Below are positions 21,855-39,822 of a DNA stretch of 42,053 bases, in pieces. Numbering within the stretch: position 1 is the first letter of the stretch; every line of letters begins with the position of its first letter. The notes under the pieces are model-generated. The model saw nothing but the letters and a program-made list of their open reading frames with translations. It had not been told where the DNA came from and did no database searches. Origin of the DNA: an uncultured Candidatus Peribacteria bacterium (GTDB lineage Bacteria > Patescibacteriota > Gracilibacteria > UBA1369 > LOWO2-01-FULL-3); contig CAYORB010000003.1 in the NCBI GenBank assembly GCA_964406295.1, forward strand, positions 1 to 42,053. Direction: 5' to 3'. A program made the position numbers and the translations under genes.

Positions 21855-21886
21855 CTGCACAGATTAATTTTTTAACTTAGATAAAC

Positions 21887-22516: not shown

Positions 22517-22518
22517 AT

Positions 22519-23274: not shown

Positions 23275-23284
23275 TAAAATCCTC

Positions 23285-23313
23285 TTGCATAACCAATATT
23301 TCTCCTGTAATAT
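23285..23313 (+). promoter_or_regulatory. Putative sigma70 promoter of infA and the alpha cluster
   Basis: TTGCAT-N17-TAATAT. Confidence 0.6.
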
Positions 23314-23356
23314 CCAAAAGCTTTTTCGTCAAATCTCGTAAAAAAAGGGCATATAT

Positions 23357-23590
23357 ATGGGAAAAGATGACACAATCGAGGTGGAAGGGAAGGTTATTGA
23401 ACCGCTTCCAAATGCGCAATTCATTGTTGAACTCGAAGATGGAAGACAAATAACAGCACATTTATCAGGAAAAATGCGAATGCATTACATTAAAATTCTT
23501 CCTGGTGATGGGGTAACAATTCAATTAAGTACATACGACTTAGAAAAAGGACGTATTACATATAGACATTCTGGTAAAAAAAGAACTTAA
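23357..23590 (+). CDS. infA: Translation initiation factor IF-1
   Basis: [25 protein letters not shown]. Confidence 0.98.
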
Positions 23591-23600
23591 ACGTAAAAAA

Positions 23601-23762
23601 ATGAAAGTAGGAGCATCAGTAAAGGTAATCTGTGACGGTTGTAGAACAGTAAAAAGAAGAGGTACTCTTTCAGGAGGGAGAAGGGGTAAAAGAGGAACAA
23701 AAAAACCTATCCTTCGTGTTATTTGTAGTAAGAACCCTAGGCATAAACAAAGACAAGGTTAA
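23601..23762 (+). CDS. rpmJ: 50S ribosomal protein bL36, 53 aa with internal insertion (absent from ORF track)
   Basis: Hand translation [53 protein letters not shown]; C-C-C-H zinc ligands; infA-rpmJ-rpsM synteny. Confidence 0.95.
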
Positions 23763-23769
23763 GTCTTAA

Positions 23770-23815
23770 GTTGTCAGTATTTTTTCTTCCCCCCCGAAAA
23801 AGAAATACTGACAAC
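23770..23815 (+). repeat. Long hairpin between rpmJ and rpsM
   Basis: 13-bp perfect stem GTTGTCAGTATTT/AAATACTGACAAC, extendable to about 19 bp, oligo-C loop. Confidence 0.8.
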
Positions 23816-23835
23816 CTAGCATTTAACTAGTTGCG

Positions 23836-24210
23836 ATGGCACGTATTGCAGGTGTAAACCTACCAAAAGAGAAAAGGATCGAAGCGGCATTAACATCAAT
23901 CTTCGGGATTGGAAGAAGCACAAGTGCGTCCATCCTTGGGGAGTCAAAAATCGATGCAAACACAAAAGTGAAAGATTTAACTGAAAGTGAAATCACCACG
24001 CTTCGTGAAATAATAGGTAAAATACCAAACGAAGGTGATTTAAAAAGGAAGGTAACTTTAGACATTAAGCGTCTTCAGGAAATTGGTTCTCACAGAGGTT
24101 TTAGGCATAAAAAAGGTTTACCGGTAAGAGGTCAAAGAACTCGTTACAACGCAAGAACAAGAAAAGGGAAGAGAAGAACCGTAGCAAACAAGAAAATAGC
24201 AACCAAGTAA
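23836..24210 (+). CDS. rpsM: 30S ribosomal protein uS13
   Basis: [26 protein letters not shown]. Confidence 0.99.
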
Positions 24211-24222
24211 TAAACACATCAC

Positions 24223-24612
24223 ATGGCCGACAAGAAAAAAACTACAAAAAAAGCAAAGAGAAGAGCTGTGCCACAAGGAAACGCTCATATCCAAGCTTCA
24301 TACAATAATACAATCATTACACTTACAGATACTAACGGAGATGTGATCGCTTGGGGAAGTGCAGGGGCAAGTGGATTTAAAGGAGCTAGGAAATCTACTC
24401 CATACGCAGCTCAAATCTCAGCTGAAAATGCCGCTGAGAAAGCTAAAATGTATGGTTTAGAAAAAGTTCATGTTTATGTTAAAGGAGTTGGAAGTGGTAG
24501 AGAGCAAGCTATCCGTGGATTAGTATCTAAAGGGATTGATGTAATATCAATAAACGATATCACTCCTATTCCTCACAATGGATGTAGAAAGAAGAAACAA
24601 AGAAGAGTATAA
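24223..24612 (+). CDS. rpsK: 30S ribosomal protein uS11
   Basis: [31 protein letters not shown]. Confidence 0.99.
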
Positions 24613-24624
24613 CCATAAATAAAT

Positions 24625-25239
24625 ATGTCACGCTACACAGGACCAATCACAAAAATATCAAGAAGACTGGGAGTAATCCTATTTGCTAACGGGGAAAGCA
24701 AAACTAAAGCTTTCAATAATAAAAATTACAAACCTGGAGAGCATGGACAAAAACGTTTTTCTAAAAAATCTGAATATAAGAAACAGCTTGAAGAGAAACA
24801 AAAAGCAAGATTCATGTATGGAATCAGTGAAAAACAATCAAGAAAATATTATATGATGGCTAGCAAAAGTCAAAATGTAACTGGTGAAGAGTACATGACA
24901 ATTCTAGAAAGAAGATTAGACAATGTAATTTTCAGAGCTGGAATTGCAACAACCAGACAACAAGCAAGGCAGATTGTAAGTCATGGATTAGTTAACTACA
25001 ACGGACATAAAGCTAAAACTCCATCAATACTTGTTAAAATTGGAGATACCTTCGAAGTAAGAAGTAACAGAAAATCTTCAAAATTATTCGAAGAAATAAA
25101 GAACGCAAAACATAGGTCTCCAAAATGGCTTAAGGTAGACCTCAAAAGTCTAAAAGGTGAAGTGACTGCTCTACCTGATAAAGACGATATTGAGAAAGTT
25201 ATCGAACATCAACTTATTACTGAATTTTACTCTAAATAA
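24625..25239 (+). CDS. rpsD: 30S ribosomal protein uS4
   Basis: MSRYTGP, PGEHG, LERRLDNV, ARQIVSHG, EFYSK. Confidence 0.99.
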   Translation: MSRYTGPITKISRRLGVILFANGESKTKAFNNKNYKPGEHGQKRFSKKSEYKKQLEEKQKARFMYGISEKQSRKYYMMASKSQNVTGEEYMTILERRLDNVIFRAGIATTRQQARQIVSHGLVNYNGHKAKTPSILVKIGDTFEVRSNRKSSKLFEEIKNAKHRSPKWLKVDLKSLKGEVTALPDKDDIEKVIEHQLITEFYSK

Positions 25240-25248
25240 CAGTTTTGA

Positions 25249-25265
25249 GTCTTGCAAAGCAAGAC
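25249..25265 (+). repeat. Short hairpin upstream of rpoA
   Basis: GTCTTGC-AAA-GCAAGAC. Confidence 0.5.
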
Positions 25266-25295
25266 AATCACCCTGTCAATTAAACACAACGCAAA

Positions 25296-26270
25296 ATGCA
25301 TCAAATCCAAGAAGAAATAGGTATTCCAAAGTTTTCTATAGAGCCAATTTCAAAGAATCATGTCATTTTCACTATGAGCCCACTTCCAACTGGATATGGT
25401 GTAACTCTAGGAAACGCATTGAGAAGAATTCTTTTATCTTCACTTCCTGGAGCATGTGTAACTGGTGTGAAAATTGATGGAGCTAGCCATGAATACTCAA
25501 CTATAAAAGGACTTAAAGAAAGTGTTTTAGACTTAAATCTAAATCTAAAACTTCTTAATATTAAAAAAGATACTGCTGAGCCTTCAGTTATAACACTTGA
25601 AACATCAAAGAGTGGAAAAATATTTGCAAAAGATATTACTTGTCCTTCAGAAGTTACTATTTTGAATCCTGATCTCTATATTTGTACAGTTGAAAAAGGA
25701 ACAAAACTGAAGATTGAAATGAGAGTGGAAAAAGGAGTTGGATACATTCCCGCTTCTGTTAGACAAGCTGATGAAGAAGATGCATCAATTATTCTCTTAG
25801 ATGCTTTATATTCTCCAATTAAAAAGATTAGATATGATGTGGGACCTACTCGTGTAGGTAAGATGACAAATCTAGACAAGTTAACTTTAGAAATTGAAAC
25901 AAATGGAACCATTAGTCCTGAAGATGCCTTGAAATTCGCATCAAACATTTGTCAATCATACTTCAACCTTTTCAATGCTGAAAATATAATGGTTGAAGAA
26001 GACTACATGTCTGATATCAAATCTATCTTAGAAAAAGAGCAAGAAGAAGAAGCTAAAAAACCAAGTCAAGAAGCATATACTCCAGTGGAAATTCTTGGTT
26101 TCTCACCTAGAACACTCAACGCACTTATTAACGGAGGTATTGGTTCAATTGAACAATTATCAAAATGTACTGAAAGTAAGTTGTCAAATCTTCGTGGATT
26201 TGGTAAAAAGGCGCTCACAGAAGTTGCTTCAGCTTTAGAGAAAAAAGGATTAAAACTATCAGAAGAATAA
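25296..26270 (+). CDS. rpoA: RNA polymerase alpha subunit
   Basis: GYGVTLGNALRRILLSSLPG, HEYSTI, alpha-CTD (SPRTLNAL...GFGKKAL). Confidence 0.99.
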   Translation: MHQIQEEIGIPKFSIEPISKNHVIFTMSPLPTGYGVTLGNALRRILLSSLPGACVTGVKIDGASHEYSTIKGLKESVLDLNLNLKLLNIKKDTAEPSVITLETSKSGKIFAKDITCPSEVTILNPDLYICTVEKGTKLKIEMRVEKGVGYIPASVRQADEEDASIILLDALYSPIKKIRYDVGPTRVGKMTNLDKLTLEIETNGTISPEDALKFASNICQSYFNLFNAENIMVEEDYMSDIKSILEKEQEEEAKKPSQEAYTPVEILGFSPRTLNALINGGIGSIEQLSKCTESKLSNLRGFGKKALTEVASALEKKGLKLSEE

Positions 26271-26298
26271 CAAGCAATAAAAGGCATTAATAAATAAT

Positions 26299-26652
26299 AT
26301 GAGACATAAAGTAAAGAAAGTAAAACTAGTTGGTGATAAAGATCACAGAACCGCCTTAATGCGTAATTTGGCAATGCAGGTGATCATTTACGATAAGATA
26401 AAAACTACTTCTGCAAGAGCTAAAGCGGTACAACCATTCGTAGAAAGATTAATCACTATTGCAAAAGGAAAGAATAAAGTTCATGCAATCAGAGAAGTAA
26501 ACCGATTATTGCAGCATGAAAATGGATCAAAAAAAATCTTTGAAGTTTTATTAGAAAAATATAATGACAGAGATTCTGGATACACTAGAATTACCAAACT
26601 AGGTTACAGAAGTGGAGATAATGCTCCAGTAGTACAAATTGAACTCGTATAA
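26299..26652 (+). CDS. rplQ: 50S ribosomal protein bL17
   Basis: MRHK, IKTT.ARAK, SGYTRI, RSGDNAP. Confidence 0.98.
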   Translation: MRHKVKKVKLVGDKDHRTALMRNLAMQVIIYDKIKTTSARAKAVQPFVERLITIAKGKNKVHAIREVNRLLQHENGSKKIFEVLLEKYNDRDSGYTRITKLGYRSGDNAPVVQIELV

Positions 26653-26662
26653 CAGGCAACAC

Positions 26663-27091
26663 ATGAAAACATATATTCCAAAAAAAGAAGACATCAAACG
26701 AAAATGGTACATAATTGATGCAAAAGATAAAGTACTAGGAAGAATCGCAACAAAAATTGCCGATAAATTAAGAGGTAAAGATAAACCAATTTTTTCACCA
26801 CACATGGATAGCGGAGATTTCGTTATTATCATCAATGCTGATAAAGTAAAATTGACTGGTAATAAGATGGAGGGGAAGCTATACCACAGACATTCAGGTT
26901 TTCCTGGAGGGTATAAGAATATGAACGCAAAGGAGCTATTTGCAAAAAAACCTACAAAAGTGATGGAATTCGCTATCAGTGGAATGCTTCCAAAGAATAA
27001 ATTAAGAAAAGTATTCATGGAAAAATGTAAAATTTACGCTGGAGAAAAACATCCTCACGAAGCTCAAAAACCAGAAACTTTAGAAGTATAA
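26663..27091 (+). CDS. rplM: 50S ribosomal protein uL13
   Basis: WYIIDA, LRGKDKP, GMLPKN, HPHEAQKP; ATG 26663 is preferred over the TTG 26639. Confidence 0.98.
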   Translation: MKTYIPKKEDIKRKWYIIDAKDKVLGRIATKIADKLRGKDKPIFSPHMDSGDFVIIINADKVKLTGNKMEGKLYHRHSGFPGGYKNMNAKELFAKKPTKVMEFAISGMLPKNKLRKVFMEKCKIYAGEKHPHEAQKPETLEV

Positions 27092-27101
27092 TCAATAAAT
27101 A

Positions 27102-27542
27102 ATGACTACAAAAACTACGAAAAAAGAAGATGAGAAAAAAATTGCTACTCCAAGTGGTAGATACGACTATGCAAATGGAAAAAGAAAAAGCGCAGTAGCT
27201 AAAGTAAGATTATACAAAGGAAAAGGAGTTATAACTATAAATGACAGAGCAATTGATGATTATTTCGCTCTTAAAACTCTTATAGCCAGAATAAATAGTC
27301 CATTAAAAATAACAGGAACTACAAAAACTTTTGATATCACAGTAAAAGTAGTTGGTGGTGGAAATACAGCTCAAGCAGAAGCAATTCGTCATGGTATAGC
27401 TAAAGCTTTGGTTGAAATCGACAGTACTAATAAACCTAGCCTTAAAAAAGCAGGATTACTTACTCGTGATTCACGTGTAAAAGAACGAAAGAAATTCGGT
27501 TTAAAGCGTGCAAGAAAAGCTCCACAATTCAGCAAACGTTAA
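27102..27542 (+). CDS. rpsI: 30S ribosomal protein uS9
   Basis: [28 protein letters not shown]. Confidence 0.99.
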
Positions 27543-27599
27543 AATTTTGGCTTATTAATTTTTAGCTAAATATCTAACAATCATTTTTCTCTACTTGAT

Positions 27600-27627
27600 T
27601 TGAATTTAAATCATTCTTTGCTAGAAT
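27600..27627 (+). promoter_or_regulatory. Putative promoter of the P-type ATPase cluster
   Basis: TTGAAT-N16-TAGAAT with TGn extended -10; the ATG is only 8 nt downstream. Confidence 0.5.
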
Positions 27628-27635
27628 AACTTTAT

Positions 27636-30125
27636 ATGATTGGTCTTACCTCCAAACAAGCAAAGAAACTACTTCCCAAATATGGGTACAACGAAACTCC
27701 AAGCAAAAAAAAGTATACCAGTTTAAAAATACTTATTTCACAGTTCACCTCTTTCTTAGTAATAATTCTAATAATTGCAGGAGGTATATCTATAATTCTT
27801 AACGAATTAATAGACGGAATAGCAATACTAGCTATTGTGTTTATTAATGCCAGCATAGGTTTTATTCAAGAATACAAAGCTGAAAATGCTGTAGCAAAAC
27901 TAAAAAAATCACAAATAACTAAATGCATTGTATATCGTGATGAAGAAGAAAAAGAAATACCTGTAAGAGAATTAGTACCAGGAGACATAATCATATTAAA
28001 TGAAGGCGATAAAATCCCAGCAGATGCTGAAATTTTAGAAGCATTTTCACTAAAATTAGATCAATCTATGCTTACAGGAGAAAGTATTGCAGTAAATAAA
28101 ATAGCTGGAAAAGATTTATTATATAAAGAAACAATTATAATTTCCGGTCGTGGTTTAGCCAAAGTAATAGCAACAGGTAAAAAAACAGAATTTGGAAAAA
28201 TTATAAATCTACTTTCACAAGAAGCTGAAACAAAATCCCCTCTTGCAATACAACTAAATGAATTAGGCAAAAAAATTGGAATACTAATTTTAATATTAAT
28301 TTTAGTTTTATTTATACTAGGTTTTATACGTGGCATAGAAACTTTTGAAATGCTAATGACATCAGTTGCCTTGGGAGTCTCCGCCATACCTGAAGGAATG
28401 CCTATAATCGTCACACTCACACTTGCGATGGGAGTTACAATTCTTTCTAAAAAAAATGCCATCGTAAGAAAAATGAATTCAATTGAAACTTTAGGAGCAA
28501 CAACAGTTATCTGTTCAGACAAAACAGGTACACTTACTGTTAACGAAATGACAGTAAAAAAAATATTCACAAATTTTCAAGAAACAAAAATCCCAGGAGT
28601 GGGGTATAAAATAAAAGATAAAATTAAACTAACTTCAGCAAGTCAAAAGTTATTGCTAGAGATTTGTGAAAATTGTAACAATAGTTTTTATGGAAAACAA
28701 ATCCTTGGGGACCCAACTGAAATCGCATTAAAAGTATTAACACGCAAAGCAGGAGATGCCAAAGAATATAAAAAATTAGATGAAAAAGTATTCACTTCAG
28801 AAAGGAAAATGATGAGTACCTTTCATAAAAAAGGAAACAAGAAAATTACATATACAAAAGGGGCCTTTGAAGAAGTTTTAAAACATTGCAGCTTTATAAT
28901 AAAAAATGGTAAAAAAATAAAACTTACGGCAGCAGATAAAAAAAATATTGAAGAAATTGCAATTAAATACGCATCACAAGCATTGAGAGTTTTAGGAATG
29001 GCCTATAAAGAAGATCATTTTGAAGAAAAAAATCTAACATTTGTTGGATTAATAGGAATGATAGACCCACCACGTAAAACTGCACAAGCATCAATCAAAA
29101 CAGCAATCAAAGCTGGAATAGAAGTAAAAATAATCACAGGAGATAACGCTCTAACTGCACAAGCAATCGCAAAAGAAATAGGTATAATTACAGAAAATAT
29201 TATAACTGGAGATGAAATAGATAAACTCTCTGATAAGAAATTACTAGAAATAATACGTAATAATCAAATATTTGCCCGTACCAAACCTGAACACAAATAC
29301 CGCATAGTTGATTTACTACAAAAAGACAAAGAAGTGGTAGCAGTTACAGGAGACGGTGTTAATGATGCACCAGCTTTAAAACACGCCGATGTCGGAGTGG
29401 CTATGGGAATAAAGGGTACAGAAGCCAGTAAAGAAGTTGCAGACATAGTACTCAAAGACGACAAATTTTCTACCATAGTAAACACCATAGAAGAAGGTCG
29501 CCGCATTTATCACAACATTCTAGCCTTCATCAAATATATGCTGTCCGCTAATTTTGACACAATCATGGCGGTAGGCATATTAACATTAATAGGACAACCA
29601 TTACCTATTTTGCCTTTGCAAATACTTTGGATCAACATAGCAACTGATGCACTACCAGCGCTAGCACTCGGAATCTCACCTGCTTCAGAAGGAATCATGA
29701 AAGAAAAACCACATCCAAAAGGAGAAAATATATTTAAAAAATTTCTCAGTTTCATATTAATCGCAGCTTGTATACAAACAATCGCAAACCTAATAGTTTT
29801 TTTCTACGGCATGAATGAAGAAGGTACAAGACTAGCTCGAAGCATGGTTTTCACACAAATTGTTATGTTTGAATTATTTTTTGTTTTTGTCTGCAAAGAA
29901 GAAAAAACACTAACATTCAAATCATTTATTTCAAACAAAACTTTAATTGGAGCAGTAGGAATATCATTTTCACTACAATTGATAATGCTTTATACACCAT
30001 TCATGCAAAGTATTTTTAAAACACTTCCCCTAAATATAACACAATGGGCATTAATAATATTCTGTGCTTCATCAGCCTTCATTATCCCAAAGATTAATCA
30101 AAGTTGGAAAAAACTTATCAATTAA
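27636..30125 (+). CDS. Cation-transporting P-type ATPase (P2A, Ca2+-type)
   Basis: LTGES, PEGMP, CSDKTGTLT, KGAFE, DPPR, TGDN, GDGVNDAPAL, QILWINIATD. Confidence 0.95.
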   Translation: MIGLTSKQAKKLLPKYGYNETPSKKKYTSLKILISQFTSFLVIILIIAGGISIILNELIDGIAILAIVFINASIGFIQEYKAENAVAKLKKSQITKCIVYRDEEEKEIPVRELVPGDIIILNEGDKIPADAEILEAFSLKLDQSMLTGESIAVNKIAGKDLLYKETIIISGRGLAKVIATGKKTEFGKIINLLSQEAETKSPLAIQLNELGKKIGILILILILVLFILGFIRGIETFEMLMTSVALGVSAIPEGMPIIVTLTLAMGVTILSKKNAIVRKMNSIETLGATTVICSDKTGTLTVNEMTVKKIFTNFQETKIPGVGYKIKDKIKLTSASQKLLLEICENCNNSFYGKQILGDPTEIALKVLTRKAGDAKEYKKLDEKVFTSERKMMSTFHKKGNKKITYTKGAFEEVLKHCSFIIKNGKKIKLTAADKKNIEEIAIKYASQALRVLGMAYKEDHFEEKNLTFVGLIGMIDPPRKTAQASIKTAIKAGIEVKIITGDNALTAQAIAKEIGIITENIITGDEIDKLSDKKLLEIIRNNQIFARTKPEHKYRIVDLLQKDKEVVAVTGDGVNDAPALKHADVGVAMGIKGTEASKEVADIVLKDDKFSTIVNTIEEGRRIYHNILAFIKYMLSANFDTIMAVGILTLIGQPLPILPLQILWINIATDALPALALGISPASEGIMKEKPHPKGENIFKKFLSFILIAACIQTIANLIVFFYGMNEEGTRLARSMVFTQIVMFELFFVFVCKEEKTLTFKSFISNKTLIGAVGISFSLQLIMLYTPFMQSIFKTLPLNITQWALIIFCASSAFIIPKINQSWKKLIN

Positions 30126-30139
30126 GTACTATAAAAATA

Positions 30140-30787
30140 ATGCGTTTCGATATTCTCACAATCTTTCCGAAAATTTTCAGCTCATACTTCAATGAGAGCA
30201 TCATAAAACGTGCTCAAGAAGAAAATCTTATAGAAATACATATTCATGACATTCGCCAATTCAGCAAAGATAAACACAAAAAAGTAGACGCCATGCCTTT
30301 TGGTGGTGGAGCAGGCATGCTTATGACTCCTCAACCTTTATATGACGCAATAACATATGTAAAAACATTAAACAATGGACCTGTGGTATACATGACTCCA
30401 CAGGGAAAAACATTCACCCAAGCACGCGCAGAAAGATTTGCAAAAAAAGATCAGGATTTAATATTTCTTTGTGGTCGCTATGAAGGAATAGATCAGAGAA
30501 TTCGTGATAGTTTAATCGATGAAGAAATTTCAATAGGAAACTATGTGCTAACAGGTGGAGAATTGGCAGCAACAATTTTAATAGACAGCATATCCAGATT
30601 AATATCGGGAGTACTTGGAAAAGAAGAATCTCATCTCGAAGACTCATTTTCAAAATCTCTAGGTAGAAAAAAGGAGTATCCACACTACACACGCCCATCA
30701 GAATTCAAAGGAATGAAAGTACCAAACGTATTATTATCTGGTCACCATAAAAATATAGAAATTTGGCGCAAAAAGAATCTTAAATAA
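30140..30787 (+). CDS. trmD: tRNA (guanine37-N1)-methyltransferase
   Basis: MRFDILTIFP, PFGGGAGM, CGRYEGIDQR, SIGNYVLTGGE, EYPHYTRP; ATG 30140. Confidence 0.98.
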   Translation: MRFDILTIFPKIFSSYFNESIIKRAQEENLIEIHIHDIRQFSKDKHKKVDAMPFGGGAGMLMTPQPLYDAITYVKTLNNGPVVYMTPQGKTFTQARAERFAKKDQDLIFLCGRYEGIDQRIRDSLIDEEISIGNYVLTGGELAATILIDSISRLISGVLGKEESHLEDSFSKSLGRKKEYPHYTRPSEFKGMKVPNVLLSGHHKNIEIWRKKNLK

Positions 30788-32496
30788 TGAAACACATCCT
30801 CACACAACTTTTGACATTAATAATAGCAGGCATACCTTTTAGCCTGCTTGTCTCAAATTATTTTCAAAAGATATTTTCAAAATTCAACACTAAATTAGCT
30901 AATATAAACACTGTTTGCACAAAAGTTATTGGCACATTAACAAGAGATGAGATATCTGTTAAAAGTCTTCAATATGATAAATATAAAGTAAAAGTTGATG
31001 AAGAAAGTGACTTTCTTGAATTTTATAATCAAGAAACAAAAAAAACTATAAAAATAGAGCAGCGTGAGTTGAAAAAAGATGAAACGGTAAATTTCATGGC
31101 AATTTGTGCAACTCTTTGTCATTACGAAAAAATGAGAAACATAGAAACTGTTATGTCTCACTTCTTCCAGTTTTGCAATATTAGTAGTTCACAAATAGAA
31201 CATGAATACAAAATAATCGATGAAATTCCCTGCAGAAAAAACAAAAAAATCTCAACTGTTGTAACAATCAAAAATACAACTCAAGAGATATTTTCATTCA
31301 GCAAAGGTAATCCTAAAGCTATTTTGGAAAAATGCAGCCGCATGTTAGTGAGTGGCAATAAAATAGAAATAGACTATCAACTACGTCGCAAATTAAAACG
31401 TCAGATAAAAAGTCTCAACAAAAGAGGTGAAAAAGTAATAGCATTTGCATACAAAGGACTTCCACTAAAAAGATACGATAAATACACAGAAAGCTTTGCA
31501 GAAAAAGACATGGTACTAGTTGGAATAGTAGGATTAGGCAATTTCATAGACAAAGAACTGTCTAAACAAATAAGTGAACTTAAAAATGCAGGAGTTAAAA
31601 TTCGACTTCTCGCAAAAACCCGTGCCCGTAAAGCAATAGCTGTGGGGCAAGAATTGGGCATTGTTAACCCTCAATATTTTGAATCAATAGAAAAAGATGA
31701 ACTTGAAGATCTTAGTGATGAAAAACTTGCAAAAATGTTAGCAAACAAAGAAAAAGACTATGTTTTCTCTGAATTAAGGGAAGATGACCACAACCGTATA
31801 GTCAACATTTTAAAAAATAAAGGTGAAAATGTAATAATAGCCAACAAACGAGAGGGGTTTAGTATTAAAACAATTTTAGAACGTATACAAAAAGGTCGCC
31901 AAATAAATGCTAATACTAAAAAAATCTATTCTCATGCCTTAGTATGCAAAATAACAGAAGTGATCATGATTATTACAGCTATAGTAGTACGTGCACCACT
32001 TCCACTTTCTATTGGTTTGATCATAACAATAGATTTGATTATTAATTTGCCTTTAGAGCTAGCACTTAAACATGAACCGGAAAACAATTCCAAAGATATT
32101 AATCATACAAAATTAATAACAATTGGAGTTATCACTGGCATTATAATAAGCGGAGTATACATCTGGAGTCTCACACGTTTTGGTTGGTATCCTGGAGAAA
32201 ATATAACAGTACAAAGCGAAGCTTTTGCACAATCTGCAAGTATAGCATTCATATTATTAATTATATTTCAATTAACCAATGCCTACAAAATCCGTAGACA
32301 AAAAAATATTATTTCAAATCCATACTTACCAATCGTTAGCATAGTTGTCCTTCTTTTAACCTACAGCATGCCTAAATTCAATATTCTAAACTTAGGACCA
32401 ATCAAAAACACAATAGATTTCATCATCATACTTTTTATAATAGTTTTAGTACTTATTTTAGACAAAGCAAGTATTAAATTTCTAAAAAATAAATAA
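30787..32496 (+). CDS. Degenerate P-type ATPase homolog (lacks phosphorylation Asp, A domain and M1-M3)
   Basis: Collinear with P2 ATPases from M4 onward (SKGNP, VIAFAYK, AGVKI, GRQI, PLPL), but DKTGT is KVIGT, TGD is AKT and GDGVND is absent. Confidence 0.8.
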   Translation: MKHILTQLLTLIIAGIPFSLLVSNYFQKIFSKFNTKLANINTVCTKVIGTLTRDEISVKSLQYDKYKVKVDEESDFLEFYNQETKKTIKIEQRELKKDETVNFMAICATLCHYEKMRNIETVMSHFFQFCNISSSQIEHEYKIIDEIPCRKNKKISTVVTIKNTTQEIFSFSKGNPKAILEKCSRMLVSGNKIEIDYQLRRKLKRQIKSLNKRGEKVIAFAYKGLPLKRYDKYTESFAEKDMVLVGIVGLGNFIDKELSKQISELKNAGVKIRLLAKTRARKAIAVGQELGIVNPQYFESIEKDELEDLSDEKLAKMLANKEKDYVFSELREDDHNRIVNILKNKGENVIIANKREGFSIKTILERIQKGRQINANTKKIYSHALVCKITEVIMIITAIVVRAPLPLSIGLIITIDLIINLPLELALKHEPENNSKDINHTKLITIGVITGIIISGVYIWSLTRFGWYPGENITVQSEAFAQSASIAFILLIIFQLTNAYKIRRQKNIISNPYLPIVSIVVLLLTYSMPKFNILNLGPIKNTIDFIIILFIIVLVLILDKASIKFLKNK

Positions 32497-32744
32497 TGGA
32501 GATTCCAAGAAACAACGATTATCTCCGAATAAAGGTAATACCAAAAAGTCCAAAAAATGAAATTACAGAAATTATGGATGATGATACAATCAAAATCCGA
32601 ATAAAAGCTGTACCAGAAAAAGGAAAAGCAAACGCAGAATTAATCAAGTTTCTCAGCAAAGAACTAGAATTAGAAAAATCAAGAATATCAATAATAAGCG
32701 GAAAAACCGAACAATTGAAATTAATCAAATTAAAATGGACCTAA
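32496..32744 (+). CDS. DUF167/UPF0235 (YggU-like) protein
   Basis: IKVIPKS, AVPEKGKANAELIKFL, ISIISG. Confidence 0.9.
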   Translation: MEIPRNNDYLRIKVIPKSPKNEITEIMDDDTIKIRIKAVPEKGKANAELIKFLSKELELEKSRISIISGKTEQLKLIKLKWT

Positions 32745-33505
32745 CTGATCTACAAACAATAAAAAAATTATTAGCAGAACATAATCAAACAGCCAAAAAA
32801 TGGATGGGACAGAATTTTCTAATAAGCAGAAACGCATTAGACAAAATCCTAGAAGCAGCCAATATTCAAAAATCTGATCAAATCATAGAAGTCGGACCAG
32901 GACTTGGAGTGCTCACAAAAGAGCTAATCGAAAAATCAGATAATGTAACAAGCATTGAACTCGATTCAACCATAATACCAATATTAAAGAAAGTCATCCC
33001 CGGGAATGAACTCAAAATACTTCATCAAGACGCACTGAGATTTGAACCGCCAACAACTCCATACAAAGTTGTAGCAAATATCCCCTACAACATAACATCT
33101 CCATTGATTAATCATTTCTTGCAGGCAGAAAACCCTCCGACATCCCTCACTTTGCTCGTACAAAAAGAGGTAGCTGAAAAAATATGCAAAATCAATCCTG
33201 ATATGACAATACTTTCAATGCAAGTACATCTCTTCGGAGACGCTGAATACATAGAAACAGTAACATCTAATTGCTTCCACCCTGCACCAAAAGTCGATTC
33301 TGCCATTCTGCATATAAAATCAAACCAAAAAACAAGGCGCGAAAACGCCCTAGCAATTTTAAAACTAGCCAAGCGCGCCTTCCGCGGCCGACGCAAAAAA
33401 CTTTCAAACACACTCGCAGATCTAAAAGAAAAACTCATAGAACTAAATCTGCAAGACAAAAGACCACAGCATTTAAGTATTAAGGATTGGGGGAAGTTGA
33501 TTTAA
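32735..33505 (+). CDS. rsmA: 16S rRNA adenine dimethyltransferase KsgA
   Basis: GQNFL, EVGPGLG, VANIPYNI, QKEVA, PAPKVDS. Confidence 0.96.
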   Translation: MDLTDLQTIKKLLAEHNQTAKKWMGQNFLISRNALDKILEAANIQKSDQIIEVGPGLGVLTKELIEKSDNVTSIELDSTIIPILKKVIPGNELKILHQDALRFEPPTTPYKVVANIPYNITSPLINHFLQAENPPTSLTLLVQKEVAEKICKINPDMTILSMQVHLFGDAEYIETVTSNCFHPAPKVDSAILHIKSNQKTRRENALAILKLAKRAFRGRRKKLSNTLADLKEKLIELNLQDKRPQHLSIKDWGKLI

Positions 33506-33534
33506 ATCACATTTTAATATAAATTGAAAACACT

Positions 33535-34455
33535 ATGACAGATCTTTCAGTAAAATTTTGCGACGTTCGCTTTGAGAATCCAACAGTATTGGCTTCAGGT
33601 GTTTTAGGTGTAACTGCCAGTTGTTTACGCAATGTCGTAAATAATGGAGCTGGTGGTGTAACCACTAAATCTATTTGGTTGGAAGAACATGCTGGACATA
33701 AAAACCCAACTATGTTTGGAACTGAGCATTATTTTATGAACGCAGTTGGTTTATCAGATGGTGGAATGGATAAAGCTATGGCTGAAACTTTTCCTGAGTA
33801 TCTAGAAAATAAACCAGCACCAATTATCGGAAATGTGATTGCGAAAAATATTCATGATTTCGCTGAAGTAGTTGAAAAAATGACTAAATGCAATCCAGAT
33901 ATTATTGAAGTAAATATTTCTTGTCCTAATGTTGATGATAAGTATGGTAAACCTTTTTCATGTAGTGTTGCAGGAGCAGCAGAGGTAACTAAAGCTGTAA
34001 GAAGTTGTACTGATAAACCTTTGATTATAAAACTTACTCCAAATGTTCCAAATATTGGCGAAATTGCAAAAGCTTGTCAATCTGAAGGTGCAGATGGATT
34101 TACTTTAATTAATACTCTTTCAGGACTGGCTATTGATATAGATATGCGCAGACCTATTTTAACTAATAAATTTGGTGGAGTATCTGGTCCAGGTATTAAA
34201 CCCGTGGCAATAAAATGTGTATACGAAGTTAGCAAAGCAACTGGATTGCCTATTGTAGGAACTGGTGGAATAACTAATGGAAGAGATGCTATCGAAATGA
34301 TGATGGCTGGGGCGACTTTGGTTGGTATGGGAACTATGGTTTATTATCGTGGAGTTGAAGGGTTTGGAAAAGTTGTAGAAGAAATGAAAGAATGGTGTGA
34401 AAAGAACGGAGTTCAACATTTAGATGAAATTATTGGTGTAGCCCATAATGCTTAA
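33535..34455 (+). CDS. pyrD: Dihydroorotate dehydrogenase family 1B, catalytic subunit
   Basis: LASG, TTKS, NAVGL, EVNISCPN, KLTPN, GGVSGPGIKP. Confidence 0.96.
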   Translation: MTDLSVKFCDVRFENPTVLASGVLGVTASCLRNVVNNGAGGVTTKSIWLEEHAGHKNPTMFGTEHYFMNAVGLSDGGMDKAMAETFPEYLENKPAPIIGNVIAKNIHDFAEVVEKMTKCNPDIIEVNISCPNVDDKYGKPFSCSVAGAAEVTKAVRSCTDKPLIIKLTPNVPNIGEIAKACQSEGADGFTLINTLSGLAIDIDMRRPILTNKFGGVSGPGIKPVAIKCVYEVSKATGLPIVGTGGITNGRDAIEMMMAGATLVGMGTMVYYRGVEGFGKVVEEMKEWCEKNGVQHLDEIIGVAHNA

Positions 34456-34458
34456 AAA

Positions 34459-35271
34459 ATGGATATTAAAAAATTTGATTCAAGGTTTCAAGCTCTTGAA
34501 ATAAAGGAAATTGTGGAAGAAAGTGATAGTGTTAGAACTTTCATTTTTGACTACCCACTTGGTTCTAAACCAGGTCAATTTGTGATGTTATGGATCCCCG
34601 GGGTTGATGAAAAACCTTTTTCTGTTGCCTGGGATGATGGAAAAGAATTTTGGCTAACCATTTGTAAAGTTGGCCCAGCTACTGAGGAATTATTCAAACT
34701 TGGAGTAGGAGATAAAGTCGGTATAAGAGGACCTCTTGGTACGGCTTATAAATGGAAGAAAGGTGAACATTTAGCTGTTGTGTCAGGTGGATATGGCGCA
34801 GCTCCTATGTATTTTGTTACAAGAAAAGCTATAGAAGACGGGTGCAAAGTAGAATTTTTGACAGGTGCGCGAAATAAGGATTTATTACTTTTTGAAGAAA
34901 GAGTTGAAAGCATGGACGGAGTAAATCTTCATGTCTCTACTGATGATGGAAGTAAAGGACACAAAGGATATGTCACACAAGTTTTAGATAAAGTTTTAAC
35001 TGATAAGTCTGTAGATAAAGTTTTCAGTTGTGGACCAGAATTAATGATGAAAGCCGCTTGCGAAGTCGCTGATAAACACGATGTAGATTCTTGGATGTCT
35101 ATGGAAAAATATATGAAATGTGGAATCGGAGTTTGTGGTCAATGCGCTGTAGACGATAGTGGTGACCTTATTTGTCAAAAAGGACCTGTTATGGCCTATG
35201 ATTATGTAAAAGGATTGCCTGAACTTGGAAAATATCATAGAGACGCACAGGGAAAGAAACATTATATGTAA
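34459..35271 (+). CDS. pyrK: Dihydroorotate dehydrogenase electron-transfer subunit
   Basis: PGQFVM, KPFS, RGPLG, SCGP, MKCGIGVCGQC...C 2Fe-2S motif. Confidence 0.95.
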   Translation: MDIKKFDSRFQALEIKEIVEESDSVRTFIFDYPLGSKPGQFVMLWIPGVDEKPFSVAWDDGKEFWLTICKVGPATEELFKLGVGDKVGIRGPLGTAYKWKKGEHLAVVSGGYGAAPMYFVTRKAIEDGCKVEFLTGARNKDLLLFEERVESMDGVNLHVSTDDGSKGHKGYVTQVLDKVLTDKSVDKVFSCGPELMMKAACEVADKHDVDSWMSMEKYMKCGIGVCGQCAVDDSGDLICQKGPVMAYDYVKGLPELGKYHRDAQGKKHYM

Positions 35272-35292
35272 TGTAATTTAAATAAATATATT

Positions 35293-35937
35293 ATGAGTGT
35301 TGCAAAAAATATTGCAGAAAATCTTTTGAAACGTGAAGCTGTAAAGGTTTCTGTTGAACCTCCTTTTACTTGGACTAGTGGAATTAAAAGCCCGATCTAT
35401 TGTGATAACAGAAAAATGATTTCCTTTGTTGAAGAAAGAAAAGCCGTAGTTGATGCTTTTAAAGCAATGATTAAAGAGAAAGGACTGACTTTTGACGTAA
35501 TTGGAGGAACTGCTACAGCAGCTATTCCTTGGGCTGCATTTTTAGCTCACGAATTAGATGTGCCTATGGTATATATTCGTCCAAAAAAGAAAGAACATGG
35601 TGCTGGAAAACAAATTGAAGGAGCTCTTGAACCTGGTAAAAAAGTACTTATTGTTGAGGATTTAATTTCTACTGGTGGATCTAGTGTAAAAGCAGCTGAG
35701 GCTGTACGTGAGGAAGGACAATGTATAGTTGAAGATATTTTAGCGATTGTAACTTGGGATTTTGATAAATCAAAAACAGCTTTTGCTGAAGGAAATTTAA
35801 ATATGCACACGTTAACTGATTTTGCACACATTGTAACTTCAGCCGGTGAAATCGGAAGCATTACAGCTGAACAACAAGAAACAGTACTTGGTTTCGCTTC
35901 TGATCCAGCTGGATGGGGAGAAAAAATGGGACTTTAA
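35293..35937 (+). CDS. pyrE: Orotate phosphoribosyltransferase
   Basis: FTWTSGIKSPIYCDNR, KEHG, PRPP motif VEDLISTGGS. Confidence 0.97.
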   Translation: MSVAKNIAENLLKREAVKVSVEPPFTWTSGIKSPIYCDNRKMISFVEERKAVVDAFKAMIKEKGLTFDVIGGTATAAIPWAAFLAHELDVPMVYIRPKKKEHGAGKQIEGALEPGKKVLIVEDLISTGGSSVKAAEAVREEGQCIVEDILAIVTWDFDKSKTAFAEGNLNMHTLTDFAHIVTSAGEIGSITAEQQETVLGFASDPAGWGEKMGL

Positions 35938-35976
35938 ACTACAAACCTAACTGAAAATATTTAAATTTTTATTAAC

Positions 35977-36924
35977 ATGGCTAAGAATTTTGCAGATAAG
36001 TTAATCGATGCGATTAAAAAGAAAGGGAATCCTATTTGCGTAGGTCTAGATCCACGCTTAAATCAAATTCCTGAATTTATTTTAGGAAAAATTCAGAAAA
36101 ACACAGATCTTAGCCCCACAGAGATGGCAGCTGAAGCTATCATTGAGTTTAATAAAGGAATTTTAGATGCTGTTGCTGATCTTGTTCCTGTGGTAAAACC
36201 ACAAATCGCCTTCTATGAAATTTATGGAGCTGATGGTATACGTGCATATCAGGAAACTTTAAAATATGCGAAAGAAAAAGGTGTTTTGACTATTGCTGAT
36301 GCAAAACGAAACGACATTGGATCAACTGCAGCAGCCTATGCTAGGAGTTTTCTTGGTGAAGTTGAAATATTTGAAGGAAGTGAAAACGAAGTGGTTACTC
36401 CAATTTTTGATGCAGATTCTTTAACAGTAAATGCTTATCTTGGTTGGGATGGTGTGAAACCTTTTGCTGAGGAATGTGATAAATATGACAGAGGACTTTT
36501 TGTTTTAGTCAAAACTTCAAATAAAAGCAGTGGTGATTTACAGGATCTGCAAATGGCAGACGGTAGATCTGTTTACGAAATAATGGGACATTATGTAGAT
36601 AGCTGGGGTGCTGATTATATAGGTGAAAGCGGATACAGCTTTCTTGGTGCAGTAGTTGGTGCAACTTATCCAGAAGAAGCTAAAAAATTACGTAGAATTA
36701 TGCCAAATTCAATTTTCTTGGTTCCAGGATATGGTGCTCAAGGTGGTGGAGCAGCAGATGTTAAACCATGTTTTAATGAAGATGGTCTTGGAGCAATTGT
36801 AAATTCTTCACGTGGAATCATTTTTGCATACGAGAAAATGGAAGATTTCAGACCTGCAGCCTACGCTGAAGCAGCAAGAGCAGCCGTAATGGAAATGCAA
36901 AATGACCTAGATAGTATTTTCTAG
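35977..36924 (+). CDS. pyrF: Orotidine-5'-phosphate decarboxylase (long type)
   Basis: CVGLDP, KPQIAFYE, DAKRNDIGST, VVGAT, PGYGAQGG, NSSR. Confidence 0.96.
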   Translation: MAKNFADKLIDAIKKKGNPICVGLDPRLNQIPEFILGKIQKNTDLSPTEMAAEAIIEFNKGILDAVADLVPVVKPQIAFYEIYGADGIRAYQETLKYAKEKGVLTIADAKRNDIGSTAAAYARSFLGEVEIFEGSENEVVTPIFDADSLTVNAYLGWDGVKPFAEECDKYDRGLFVLVKTSNKSSGDLQDLQMADGRSVYEIMGHYVDSWGADYIGESGYSFLGAVVGATYPEEAKKLRRIMPNSIFLVPGYGAQGGGAADVKPCFNEDGLGAIVNSSRGIIFAYEKMEDFRPAAYAEAARAAVMEMQNDLDSIF

Positions 36925-37415
36925 TCCTCTATCTGCAAATTAACAACATCAATTAGACGGTTATGTACTAGAACAAGGTTTTCTCCATAACTATCTATTT
37001 TTTCAAAATATGGCTCAGCTTCAGCAAGTACAAATCCATTGAGCTTAAGCATATCAACAAACTCACCAGCATAAGCTAAGTAAGCATCAACTTCTGCCTT
37101 GTAAAAGTCATTATATCCAATAATAAAAACATTCTGATCTTCAGTAAATTTAGCAGATTCAAAATAATTATCCAATTCAGAAGCAACAAAAACAAAATTC
37201 TCATAATAACTAACTAATTCATCAATGTCATCCCCCTCCTCTATGGCATAATATTGATCATAAAAAGCTTCCTCCGCCACAATAAGAGCATCCATACGGT
37301 TTACAAGACCGTTATGTACAGCCGTAGAATCAACAAAAAGATTATCACATCCGCCCAATGAAAAAACAAAAATAGAAAGCGAAACAAGAATCAAAAATGT
37401 AAATATTTTTTTCAT
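36921..37415 (-). CDS. Hypothetical acidic lipoprotein
   Basis: MKK + hydrophobic stretch + lipobox LGGC; fills the pyrF-pyrB gap; stop codon overlaps the pyrF stop (CTAG). Confidence 0.75.
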   Translation of the reverse strand: MKKIFTFLILVSLSIFVFSLGGCDNLFVDSTAVHNGLVNRMDALIVAEEAFYDQYYAIEEGDDIDELVSYYENFVFVASELDNYFESAKFTEDQNVFIIGYNDFYKAEVDAYLAYAGEFVDMLKLNGFVLAEAEPYFEKIDSYGENLVLVHNRLIDVVNLQIED

Positions 37416-37481
37416 AACTTTAAAGTAAGCAAACCTAAAAACAACATTAACCTTTTTTCAAATAAATTCAAGAAGAAGAAA

Positions 37482-37528
37482 TTGACTTAATACAGCTTAT
37501 CTTGATAATCTCACTATCAGCAAGATAA
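37482..37528 (+). promoter_or_regulatory. Putative pyrB promoter with overlapping inverted repeat
   Basis: TTGACT at 37482; -10 is GATAAT or TAATCT; TTATCTTG(37497)...CAAGATAA(37521). Confidence 0.45.
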
Positions 37529-37538
37529 AAAAAAAAAC

Positions 37539-38546
37539 ATGCAAGACACTTTATTGGATAAATTAAATCAGATCAGAAAAGGACGTGATTTAAAAAATAC
37601 AGACATTATAAGTATAGAAGATTTATCAACAGAGGAAATAGAAATGATACTGGAACTTGCAACAGAAATGGAAGATTATCTTCAAGGCAACATGAAAAAA
37701 TCCAACTTGCTTAAAGGTAAAACACAGATCAATTTTTTCATGGAAAATTCAACTAGAACACGAACATCTTTCGAACTAGCAGGTAAAAATTTAGGAATAG
37801 ACACTATCAACATAGCTGCCAGTTCATCTTCACTAAAAAAAGGAGAAACTTTATTGGATACAGCAATTACTATAGATCAATTACAACCAGACATAGTCGT
37901 AATGCGAACAGCTTCATCAGGGGCTGTGAAATTTTTCGCTAAAAACGTGAAGGCAGCAGTAATAAACGCAGGAGACGGCTGGAACGAACATCCATCACAA
38001 GGATTATTAGATCTACTTACAATGAGAAGATTTGTAGACAAAGATTTAAAAGGTAAAAAACTTGTAATCGTTGGAGACATACTCCACAGTCGCGTGTTTG
38101 GTTCACTTGCAAGAATAGCAAAAAGATTCGGAATGGAAATCGTGGTAAGCGCACCACATACATTAATAAGGCCAAACCTGGAAGAAGAATGGAGAATAAA
38201 ACACGAACCTAAAATTGAAAAAGCATTAGTAGATGCAGATGTGGTTTATGTACTCAGATTACAAACTGAAAGAGCAGCAGCAGCTTATGTGCCTACACTT
38301 AGAGAATATTCAAAGACATACGTGATCAACGCAAAGAGAATGAAACTTGCAAAACCAAGCGCAATAGTGATGCACGCCGGACCTGTGATTAGAGAATTAG
38401 ATGTTCATACAAACATATTAGAAACTGAAACTTCAGTGGTTAAAAACCAAGTATTTAGCGGATATTGCATCAGATTTGCACTGCTTTGGTTACTCGGCGA
38501 AAAACGTAAAGAAAAAAGCATAACACCAAGACTATTCAAATCATGA
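37539..38546 (+). CDS. pyrB: Aspartate carbamoyltransferase catalytic subunit
   Basis: ENSTRTRTSFE, KGETL, NAGDG..EHPSQ, GDILHSRV, RLQTER. Confidence 0.97.
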   Translation: MQDTLLDKLNQIRKGRDLKNTDIISIEDLSTEEIEMILELATEMEDYLQGNMKKSNLLKGKTQINFFMENSTRTRTSFELAGKNLGIDTINIAASSSSLKKGETLLDTAITIDQLQPDIVVMRTASSGAVKFFAKNVKAAVINAGDGWNEHPSQGLLDLLTMRRFVDKDLKGKKLVIVGDILHSRVFGSLARIAKRFGMEIVVSAPHTLIRPNLEEEWRIKHEPKIEKALVDADVVYVLRLQTERAAAAYVPTLREYSKTYVINAKRMKLAKPSAIVMHAGPVIRELDVHTNILETETSVVKNQVFSGYCIRFALLWLLGEKRKEKSITPRLFKS

Positions 38547-39814
38547 AAAAATTACTTATAAAAAATGGACGCATTATAGACCCTGCAAATAACATAGATG
38601 AAATTGCAGACCTACTTGTTGAAGATGGTAAAATAAAAGAAATAGGACAAAATATAGAATCAGAAAACACAGAAATAATAGACGCAAGTAACAAAGTTGT
38701 AAGCCCAGGGTTCGTAGACATTCACGTACATCTTCGTGAACCTGGCAGAGAGGACAAAGAAACAATAGCAAGTGCATCAAAAGCCGCAGCAAAAGGCGGT
38801 ATTACTTCAGTTGTAGCAATGCCAAATACCATGCCTGCCGCAGACAATCAAACAGTAATAGAATATGTGCTTTCCAAGGCAAAGAAAGAAGCAGTAGTGA
38901 ATATTTTTGTATCAGGAACAATAACCAAAGGGCTAAACGGAAAAGAGATATCAGAAATTTGGGAACTAAAAGAAACTGGAGCAATCGCAGTAAGTGATGA
39001 CGGTTTTGATATACAAAATTTGGACACATACAGAAAAGCAATGCAATATTGCAAAACTCACGACATGCCAATCATTTCACACACAGAAGATAAAGATTTA
39101 GCAAAAGACGGACAAATGCACGAAGGAAAAATATCAAGCCGATTAGGTCTCAAAGGAATTCCAGCCTGCGCTGAAGACGCCGCAACAGCCAGAATAATCT
39201 GTATATCGGAAGACACTGACCATCCCATACATTTCACACATGTCTCAACAAAAGGATCAGTAGCATTAGTAAAACTTGCTCAAGAAAGAGGTTTAAAAAT
39301 AACAGCAGATACCACACCACATCACTTTTCATTAACAGATGATGCTGTTGCCGAATACGATACTTACGCAAAAGTTAATCCACCACTTCGAAGCGAAGAT
39401 CATAGAAAAGGAATACTAAAAGGATTAACAGACGGAACAATTTCAGTAATAGCAACAGATCACGCACCTCATCTTTGGACAGAAAAAGAACGTGAATTTG
39501 ACGCAGCACCATGCGGAATAATTGGATTTGAAACAATGCTGCCACTGATAATAACTAATCTGGTAAACACAAATGTACTAACACTTCCAGAAGCAATAGC
39601 TAAAATCACTATCAATCCAGCAAAAATACTGAAGATGGAAAAAGGAACACTAAGTAAAGGAGCAGACGCAGATATAACAATTTTCGACCCAAAAGCTAAA
39701 CAAGAAATTGATAGAACAAAATTCGAATCAAAAGGTCAAAATTCCCCATTCCACGGAATGACACTACAAGGAATCATAACCCATACAATCGTAGATGGAA
39801 ATATAATAAATTAA
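38543..39814 (+). CDS. pyrC: Dihydroorotase (class I, about 423 aa)
   Basis: DIHVHLREPG, MPNT, KVNPPLR, ATDHAPH; ATGA overlap with pyrB. Confidence 0.96.
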   Translation: MKKLLIKNGRIIDPANNIDEIADLLVEDGKIKEIGQNIESENTEIIDASNKVVSPGFVDIHVHLREPGREDKETIASASKAAAKGGITSVVAMPNTMPAADNQTVIEYVLSKAKKEAVVNIFVSGTITKGLNGKEISEIWELKETGAIAVSDDGFDIQNLDTYRKAMQYCKTHDMPIISHTEDKDLAKDGQMHEGKISSRLGLKGIPACAEDAATARIICISEDTDHPIHFTHVSTKGSVALVKLAQERGLKITADTTPHHFSLTDDAVAEYDTYAKVNPPLRSEDHRKGILKGLTDGTISVIATDHAPHLWTEKEREFDAAPCGIIGFETMLPLIITNLVNTNVLTLPEAIAKITINPAKILKMEKGTLSKGADADITIFDPKAKQEIDRTKFESKGQNSPFHGMTLQGIITHTIVDGNIIN

Positions 39815-39822
39815 AGCATCTT

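Follow-up and report, generated by a model that had tools for sequence, protein, structure and literature searches.

A truncated P-type ATPase homolog without catalytic motifs is conserved behind trmD in a family of uncultured bacteria

The locus and the encoded protein

The DNA analyzed here, which we call the window, is a stretch of 42,053 nucleotides (contig CAYORB010000003.1 of assembly GCA_964406295.1) from an uncultured marine Candidatus Peribacteria bacterium. At positions 30787..32496 of the + strand, to which all window coordinates below refer, it contains an uninterrupted open reading frame (ORF) of 569 amino acids (aa) with zero stops. Its predicted product, P0001, is a truncated and, by its motifs, catalytically dead homolog of P2-type ATPases, recognized by BLASTP, Pfam, NCBIfam, an AlphaFold2 (AF2) model, and Foldseek; we refer to it and its orthologs as the truncated form. 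The gene lies directly downstream of trmD (tRNA m1G37 methyltransferase; 30140..30787) and directly upstream of a DUF167/YggU-family gene (32496..32744), both assigned by synteny and orthologs, and the end of this conserved slot is formed by rsmA/ksgA (rRNA adenine dimethylase; 32735..33505, assigned by synteny). A second P2-type ATPase, the canonical 829-aa pump P0002 (27636..30125; Pfam, NCBIfam), precedes trmD. We are confident that P0001 is the in-place descendant of a canonical pump that occupied the slot and that it has been kept by selection.

The protein starts at the equivalent of transmembrane (TM) helix M4 of canonical pumps and could be aligned with them from there through the C terminus in MAFFT multiple alignments. 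The M4 equivalent, placed by the AF2 model and the alignment, spans residues 2-30 (30790..30876) and is kinked at P17, the Pro that alone remains of its motif after deletion of the PEGL Glu and the five next residues; in the alignment, IPFS takes the place of IPEG. The degenerate phosphorylation loop that follows (residues 43-52, 30913..30942; alignment) reads VCTKVIGTLT for ICSDKTGTLT, with Lys46 at the position of the phospho-Asp. An N domain, delimited by PF13246 and by fixed columns, covers residues ~61-245 (30967..31521) and carries E120, K154, K173-G174 within a retained SKGNP, and K216. In the P-domain remnant (residues 246-358, 31522..31860; alignment), NFID stands for DPPR and AKTR for TGDN, and a deletion of 32 residues takes out GDGVND. 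The M5-M10 membrane domain (residues 359-569, 31861..32493; PF00689 and AF2 helices) contains K388, E391, D416, N420, and Q495. The gene overlaps trmD (TAA 30785-30787, ATG 30787-30789) and the DUF167 gene (TAA 32494-32496, ATG 32496-32498) by the string TAATG on either side.

In Pfam searches, P0001 matched Cation_ATPase (PF13246, the N domain) with 30.2 bits (cut-off, 21.7) and Cation_ATPase_C (PF00689) with 35.7 bits (cut-off, 27.3), and gave no match to E1-E2_ATPase (PF00122, which covers the A domain, TGES, and M1-M3) or to Hydrolase (PF00702). It remained below every NCBIfam P-type cut-off, with 17.4 versus 62.3 bits for TIGR01494 and 65.9 versus 610.75 bits for its best subfamily match, TIGR01524. 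Similarity to pumps in the PDB reached E 1.9e-16 (phmmer), and BLASTP aligned residues 140-442 with P0002 at 22% identity (E 3e-16). By fold and descent, the truncated form is thus a member of the P-type ATPase superfamily, and all functional tests of membership came out negative (DKTGT, TGES with the A domain, TGD/GDGxND, and the curated cut-offs). The original prediction, made from the letters of the window, had described an intact 569-aa ORF with TAATG overlaps, homologous to pumps from M4 to the C terminus, with each of the motifs replaced, without the A domain (TGES) and M1-M3, and next to a canonical pump; the sequence itself, the alignments, BLASTP, and Pfam bear out all of these points.

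The AF2 model (66-row alignment) had a predicted local distance difference test score (pLDDT) of 90.4 and a predicted template modeling score (pTM) of 0.73. It comprises the kinked helix 2-30, a beta-rich head made up of the N domain and partial Rossmann elements, a long M5 (360-400), and five more membrane helices, giving seven TM helices in total. Homology and the Lys residues that follow the first helix place the N terminus presumably outside and the C terminus inside. Foldseek retrieved Na,K-, H,K-, SPCA-, and SERCA-type pumps (E 1e-27 to 1e-24; TMq up to 0.77). The model was closer to E2-state structures (TMq 0.71-0.77) than to E1 structures (0.54-0.62), which describes a predicted conformation and is not evidence for a state of the protein. 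Canonical P2-type ATPases (PMR1/SPCA-, SERCA-, and LMCA1-like) are related to the truncated form by common descent and have the same M4-M10 and N-domain fold; unlike them, the truncated form has 7 TM helices instead of 10 and is without M1-M3, TGES, the phospho-Asp, TGD, GDGVND, and the M4 Glu.

The neighboring P0002 has all Pfam domains of a complete canonical pump and scores 682 bits with TIGR01522. It also contains the single PF00122 match of its genome, which is 100% complete by markers and assembled in 70 contigs. By its gene content, the genome is therefore predicted to encode one working P-type pump and not two. The region 27636..33450 was reproduced, with 0-2 differences and no indels, by contigs of four public runs, which belong to 2 studies and are possibly the source samples, hence not independent.

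Distribution, origin, and constraint

A word-indexed search with P0001 returned 91 proteins at E<=0.001. Among these, 77 proteins of 335-612 aa matched at E<=6e-78 and were 34-48% identical to P0001, barring near-identical copies and one protein at 77%; no match fell between these and the other 14, which were full-length pumps at E>=2e-15. When 1.84 billion cluster representatives were searched with a profile, about 60 of them (520-604 aa; 50%-identity clusters) matched the whole profile in one stretch, whereas canonical pumps matched it in 2-3 stretches, broken at positions 354/358, where GDGVND is deleted. The ESM Atlas held one cluster of 56 members, most commonly from the phylum Candidatus Peregrinibacteriota, with PF13246 on 100% and PF00689 on 84% of the members and no Hydrolase family listed. 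DKTGT was likewise absent from the divergent family members P0121-P0132 and P0144. Truncated but catalytic intermediates were sought among the 560-654-aa multi-stretch profile matches, and none was found. Nine such proteins (P0135, P0141, P0148, P0151, P0156, P0158, P0169, P0179, and P0216) were considered and read as fragments of canonical pumps, since GDGVND was present in 9/9; DKTGT was present in 6/9, the other three start downstream of the motif, and most of the nine are without the N terminus.

We surveyed 205 genomes of the order, which belong to 19 families. The truncated form was found in 49 of the 56 genomes, and in 27 of the 30 genera, of one family of Peregrinibacteria type, f1 (47 genomes by single-stretch search plus contig-end fragments in G018 and G034), and in 0 of the 149 genomes of the 18 other families. 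The remaining seven f1 genomes represent three genera; five carry a canonical pump and two, which are 57% and 89% complete, gave no match. Orthologs in related genomes, which the original prediction had proposed to look for, are thus widespread within the family. Uninterrupted frames of 557-619 aa were found in 38 cases, spread over the 27 genera; the frame of G001 is shorter (487 aa), and about eight copies end at contig ends.

Wherever we examined the locus, trmD was directly upstream of the truncated form (27/27 loci). Of the 25 loci whose sequence continues downstream, 24 have DUF167 and then rsmA there, the exception being G022. In nine loci without the truncated form, four of them in f1 (G003, G031, G027, and G029) and five in other families, the same slot (trmD-X-DUF167-rsmA) was occupied by a canonical pump of 875-953 aa (9/9). 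These slot pumps have PEGL, DKTGT, DPPR, TGD, and GDGVND in 9/9 and the exact TGES string in 8/9; the slot pump of G046 (L025, C22, 5912-8743) is without exact TGES, with the five other motifs present. The nearest relatives of the truncated form are the trmD-linked pumps of 913-953 aa from the same family and order, which occupy the same slot and share lineage-specific inserts with it. Of the 28 genomes with the truncated form that were examined, 23 have an ortholog of P0002 (60-68% identity) between rpsI and trmD; in the four f1 genomes examined whose slot still holds a canonical pump, no pump of this neighbor type was found. Of the synteny that the original prediction had proposed to test, the linkage to trmD thus held throughout, and the linkage to the adjacent pump held in part.

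We computed a maximum-likelihood tree with an IQ-TREE quick search (LG+G4, 44 rows, 531 shared columns), from which a motif filter left out 5 of 21 ORFs of the truncated form (G022, G015, G020, G032, and G005). The truncated forms were monophyletic (Shimodaira-Hasegawa-like approximate likelihood ratio test support, 100) on a stem of length 0.81 and grouped as sister (92) to the canonical f1 slot pumps, inside a long slot-pump clade (100). Pumps of the neighbor type formed a separate clade (95) together with pumps of two other families. An approximately unbiased (AU) test rejected a clade of truncated forms and neighbor-type pumps (delta lnL 130, p 0.00012); this grouping was chosen after inspection of the tree and corresponds to the origin implied by the original prediction. 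The inserts YKE.P.K....Y.E and GW.WGE are common to the truncated forms and their sister pumps and are missing from the neighbor type. Because of the slot synteny, the tree, and the AU test, we identify P0001 as the resident pump degraded in place. The same three lines of evidence rule out a duplicate of P0002, and the implied origin of P0001 as a copy of the adjacent pump has to be replaced by that of a degenerate, trmD-linked resident ortholog. P0002, in turn, appears to be a second pump that came in from another clade, either through transfer between families or as an old paralog.

To follow individual residues, we compared the alignment columns of 78 members of the truncated form with those of 28 canonical relatives. 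The phospho-Asp column contained N in 29, D in 15, P in 12, T in 10, G in 4, S in 4, and other residues in 4 members; the Lys that follows this position was never kept and is V/I/L in 74/78. At TGD, the G and D columns are free to vary, and Thr or Ser occupies the T column in 66/78. At GDGVND, the N is a gap in 77/78 and the D in 78/78. P-type pumps need DKTGT and TGES to cycle. As the truncated form lacks all residues that are established as essential, it is predicted to be incapable of the Post-Albers cycle and of P-type phosphorylation and dephosphorylation, and its presumed lack of ATPase, phosphorylation, and transport activity follows from the established P-type mechanism.

Other columns are fixed. 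P17 is conserved in 77/78 members. At the nucleotide-contact positions of the N domain, Glu is kept in 77/78, the two Lys in 76/78 and 78/78, and Gly in 78/78, and Arg is replaced by Lys in 78/78. The adenine-stacking Phe, present in 27 of the 28 pumps, is Ser in 43 and Thr in 21 of the 78 truncated forms (64/78). We take these N-domain columns to correspond to SERCA E442, F487, K492, K515, and R560. In the membrane, the M5 Asn of 26/28 canonical relatives has become Lys388 in 74/78, E391 is kept in 59/78, the M6 Asn has become Asp/Glu416 in 76/78, and the M6 Asp has become Asn420 in 76/78. As read from these columns, the membrane ion site has been remodeled to a conserved polar set and not randomized.

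Mean pairwise identity among truncated forms and among slot pumps was 0.44 and 0.40 in the N domain, 0.30 and 0.65 in M4, 0.43 and 0.79 in the first P-domain segment, and 0.36 and 0.61 in M5, respectively; the two sets differ in phylogenetic depth, and only the pattern across regions is comparable. M4, M5, and M7-M10 were the least conserved parts of the truncated form (0.30-0.36). On this alignment evidence, the regional conservation pattern usual for pumps is inverted.

The ratio of nonsynonymous to synonymous substitution (dN/dS, or omega) was estimated by the Nei-Gojobori method (NG86). Of 33 within-genus pairs of the truncated form, 8 were saturated and 20 fell within 0.05<dS<1.5; the ORFs of G022 and G113 were not included. 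In these 20 pairs, the approximate omega had a median of 0.104 and a range of 0.042-0.141, and the least saturated pair (dS 0.37) gave 0.093. For the congeneric genome pair G036/G019, omega was 0.042 for the truncated form, 0.027 for trmD, and 0.037 for rsmA; for G032/G004, also congeneric, the corresponding values were 0.090, 0.073, and 0.112. The substitution pattern thus indicates that the truncated form is under purifying selection comparable to that on trmD and rsmA. The median is not near 1, the value that the original prediction had named as the mark of a decaying duplicate, and its proposal of a selected pseudoenzyme and not a decaying gene is upheld by the conservation across the family, the dN/dS of 0.04-0.14, and the loss of the motifs in 78/78 members. 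Truncated forms evolve 2-3 times faster than canonical pumps (end branches of 0.5-0.7 versus 0.15-0.3), and identity to the window copy is 36-44% among truncated forms compared with 60-68% for the adjacent pump.

Competing explanations

On balance, we favor the reading of the truncated form as a selected, non-pumping pseudoenzyme with seven TM helices that acts as a non-catalytic, membrane-anchored, nucleotide-binding sensor or regulator. The ancestor would have had a canonical P2-type pump between trmD and DUF167-rsmA, at the end of a ribosomal-protein gene cluster. In the ancestor of most f1 genera, a second pump from another clade would have been placed between rpsI and trmD, and the resident pump would then have lost its first ~280 residues (the N-terminal segment, M1-M3, and the A domain), together with the phospho-Asp, TGD, GDGVND, and the M4 Glu. 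Selection would have preserved the nucleotide pocket of the N domain, with Lys, Gly, and Glu fixed and Arg fixed as Lys, and a membrane core in which K388 is balanced in charge by D/E416 and E391 and which occupies the place of the former ion site. The role would be sensing or regulating and not transport, with no obligatory tie to the adjacent pump. Nucleotide sensing as the mechanism is a tentative part of this reading; the nucleotide sensor suggested in the original prediction is supported as a lead only, by the fixed contact positions of the N domain. A more specific version is doubtful, namely, that the dead headpiece binds ATP/ADP through the Lys/Gly/Glu/Lys pocket and drives the Lys-Asp core through M5, thereby gating a small ion or proton leak or controlling a partner such as the incoming pump.

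Several observations weigh against this reading. In most pairs dS is near or above 1, so that omega is approximate, yet far below 1. The two strain-level differences in the gene, V448I and V520L, are both nonsynonymous, if conservative, TM changes. Public data containing the stretch consisted of DNA contigs from marine or seawater metagenomes only, with no RNA dataset among them. The loss of the stacking Phe may mean that nucleotide binding is weakened or changed, as judged from the alignment. Almost every residue that is invariant in the family is an inheritance shared with the canonical sister clade and could reflect the stability of the fold and not ligand binding. Three copies are interrupted, through errors in metagenome-assembled genomes or real decay: that of G017 (L048, C64, 1617-3234) consists of a 361-aa head ORF and a 145-aa M8-M10 ORF, with M5-M6 missing; that of G026 (L049, C43, 3600-5347) has a single frameshift (441 + 142 aa); and that of G033 has a TAG stop within a 1-kb contig. 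The head parts in G017 and G026 are still 43-44% identical to the window copy. Finally, G016 offers a possible hint of constraint relaxed after loss of the pump and hence of some dependence on it. This genome (L051, C1, 2726-4405) has no adjacent pump, and its truncated form shares 44-45% identity with those of its congeners G035, which keeps the adjacent pump, and G111; between these two congeners, identity is 82%. The apparent omega of the G016 copy is 0.31-0.35, with dS saturated. The genus g4 is without such a relaxation effect.

The divergence of the G016 copy bears on what we regard as the best surviving, though unlikely, alternative, in which the truncated form is a regulatory or structural subunit of the adjacent pump, in a heteromer of a live and a dead protomer. 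It agrees with the presence of a neighbor-type pump directly upstream of trmD in 23 of the 28 genomes examined and with the coincidence of two events, as the four f1 members examined with a canonical slot pump are without the neighbor type. However, intact truncated forms also occur where the adjacent pump is missing. In g4, all six genomes carry an intact copy under constraint (omega ~0.08-0.12), and the two of them that were examined, G004 and G032, lack the pump; G022 and G016, also without it, carry intact copies as well. In G014, which appears to have lost the pump secondarily, the truncated form is intact (561 aa) and only a 62-aa remnant is left of the pump; this ORF (L052, C2, 2766-2954) lies between rpsI and trmD and is 60% identical to pump residues 49-86. 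As 5 of the 28 genomes examined have an intact truncated form and no adjacent pump, the regulatory partner of the upstream pump put forward in the original prediction is weakened.

Less likely still is a scaffold or anchor that binds no ligand and is selected for its fold or as a surface for other proteins, with the N domain conserved for stability only. The sharing of most invariant residues with the canonical sister clade, the lost stacking Phe, and the compact, high-confidence AF2 model would fit such a role, but the nucleotide-contact positions are the ones most strictly fixed (78/78, 78/78, 78/78, and 77/78), the catalytic columns of the P domain are free, and the change from Arg to Lys preserves charge.

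We consider it improbable that the protein provides a passive ion leak or a nucleotide-gated pathway through a remodeled M4-M6-M8 site. The new conserved polar set at the ion site (K388, E391, D/E416, N420, and Q495) invites the idea, but M1-M3, which form walls of the pathway in canonical pumps, are absent, the buried Lys/Asp pair suggests a filled rather than an open site, and M4, M5, and M7-M10 are the least conserved regions. An M5 Lys is, moreover, found in pump variants that carry fewer ions per cycle: the Artemia Na,K-ATPase alpha2KK is reported to have Asn-to-Lys changes in its ion-binding sites and a reduced stoichiometry (PMC10756188). K388 of the truncated form aligns with the M5 Lys of chain 8k1l_A (second aligned stretch). 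Pumps of the alpha2KK type are, however, working pumps with all catalytic motifs, while the truncated form adds the loss of the M4 Glu and the N/D swap in M6.

A decaying, functionless duplicate or relic, open by chance or through its operon position, would account for the 3 interrupted copies among 49 and for the accelerated evolution; against this very improbable explanation stand the 38 uninterrupted frames in 27 genera, the dN/dS of 0.04-0.14, the 1.7 kb that reduced genomes of ~1.2 Mb still spend on the gene, and the AU test against a duplicate of the neighbor. That P0001 is the C-terminal half of a split pump, with the N-terminal half elsewhere, can practically be dismissed, as nothing more than the truncation itself speaks for it, the C-terminal half has lost its own catalytic motifs as well, and the only PF00122 match in the 70-contig assembly of this genome lies in P0002.

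The favored reading, a nucleotide-binding sensor or regulator, can be set beside known non-catalytic proteins. The F1 alpha and V1 B subunits and degenerate nucleotide-binding domains of ABC transporters are non-catalytic paralogs kept for nucleotide binding or complex building; they have unrelated folds, and for them a complex with a live partner is established, so that the likeness is one of principle only. To our knowledge, conserved non-catalytic P-type ATPases are barely known, and a full-text literature search that did not cover supplements found no paper on this family or on a bacterial family of such kind. The nearest case found is eukaryotic TMEM94 (ERMA), which, according to one structural study, has a P-type-like fold without TGES, shows no detectable ATPase activity, and binds AMPPCP with micromolar affinity (PMC12134183). 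Its status is disputed, as a later paper calls it a Mg2+ ATPase (PMC13322241). By these descriptions, TMEM94 resembles the truncated form in its P-type-like architecture and as a possible non-cycling nucleotide binder and differs from it in being eukaryotic and in having retained an A-like domain along with ten TM helices.

Few membrane enzymes are understood as well as the P-type ATPases, and the persistence of the canonical ancestor in the same slot of sister genera provides a natural experiment, which shows the parts of a pump that are still selected once pumping is gone, namely, the N domain and a re-balanced membrane core. If the doubtful, more specific version given above, with a headpiece that drives the membrane core, is true, no P-type ATPase pseudoenzyme with a signaling role would have been known from bacteria before, and the truncated form would be a natural case of a gene that was displaced by a xenolog and then re-used. 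Its interest, mainly for pump and pseudoenzyme specialists, is limited by its confinement to one uncultured family. In the source annotations, members appear as "Ca2+-transporting ATPase," "magnesium-transporting ATPase (P-type)," "cation-translocating P-type ATPase," or "C-terminal domain-containing protein"; as members are annotated as transporters, transport capacity is over-counted in metabolic reconstructions of these reduced genomes.

Neighboring genes

Almost every genome examined in the order has the DUF167/YggU gene right after the slot, with the slot pump live or dead; besides the window, 24 other loci have it at this position. The gene often overlaps the stop codon of the slot gene and is highly conserved, with 16 invariant columns in 23 sequences. 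A functional link between the YggU family and cation pumps is conceivable. A complex prediction for the truncated form with DUF167 (score 0.00, mark 0.32) is evidence neither way, and nothing usable on DUF167/YggU was found in the literature.

Between G036 and G019, dS is uneven along the locus: 2.13 for the pump, 0.83 for trmD, 1.21 for the truncated form, and 0.31 for both DUF167 and rsmA. This could stem from recombination or from replacement of the segment from the pump to the truncated form, including trmD, between close relatives.

The window (1..42053) is nearly wholly one gene array on the + strand without tRNA genes, in which a ribosomal-protein and RNA polymerase cluster is followed by the pump, trmD, the truncated form, DUF167, rsmA, and pyrD. 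A scan for promoters and terminators around the locus gave counts at or below the shuffled expectation. The longest trmD ORF starts at TTG 30104, but the match to all orthologs begins no earlier than its residue 13 (MRFDILTIF). The true start of trmD is, on this alignment, probably ATG 30140, and trmD would then not overlap the end of the pump gene (30125), as it seems to do in the longer ORF.

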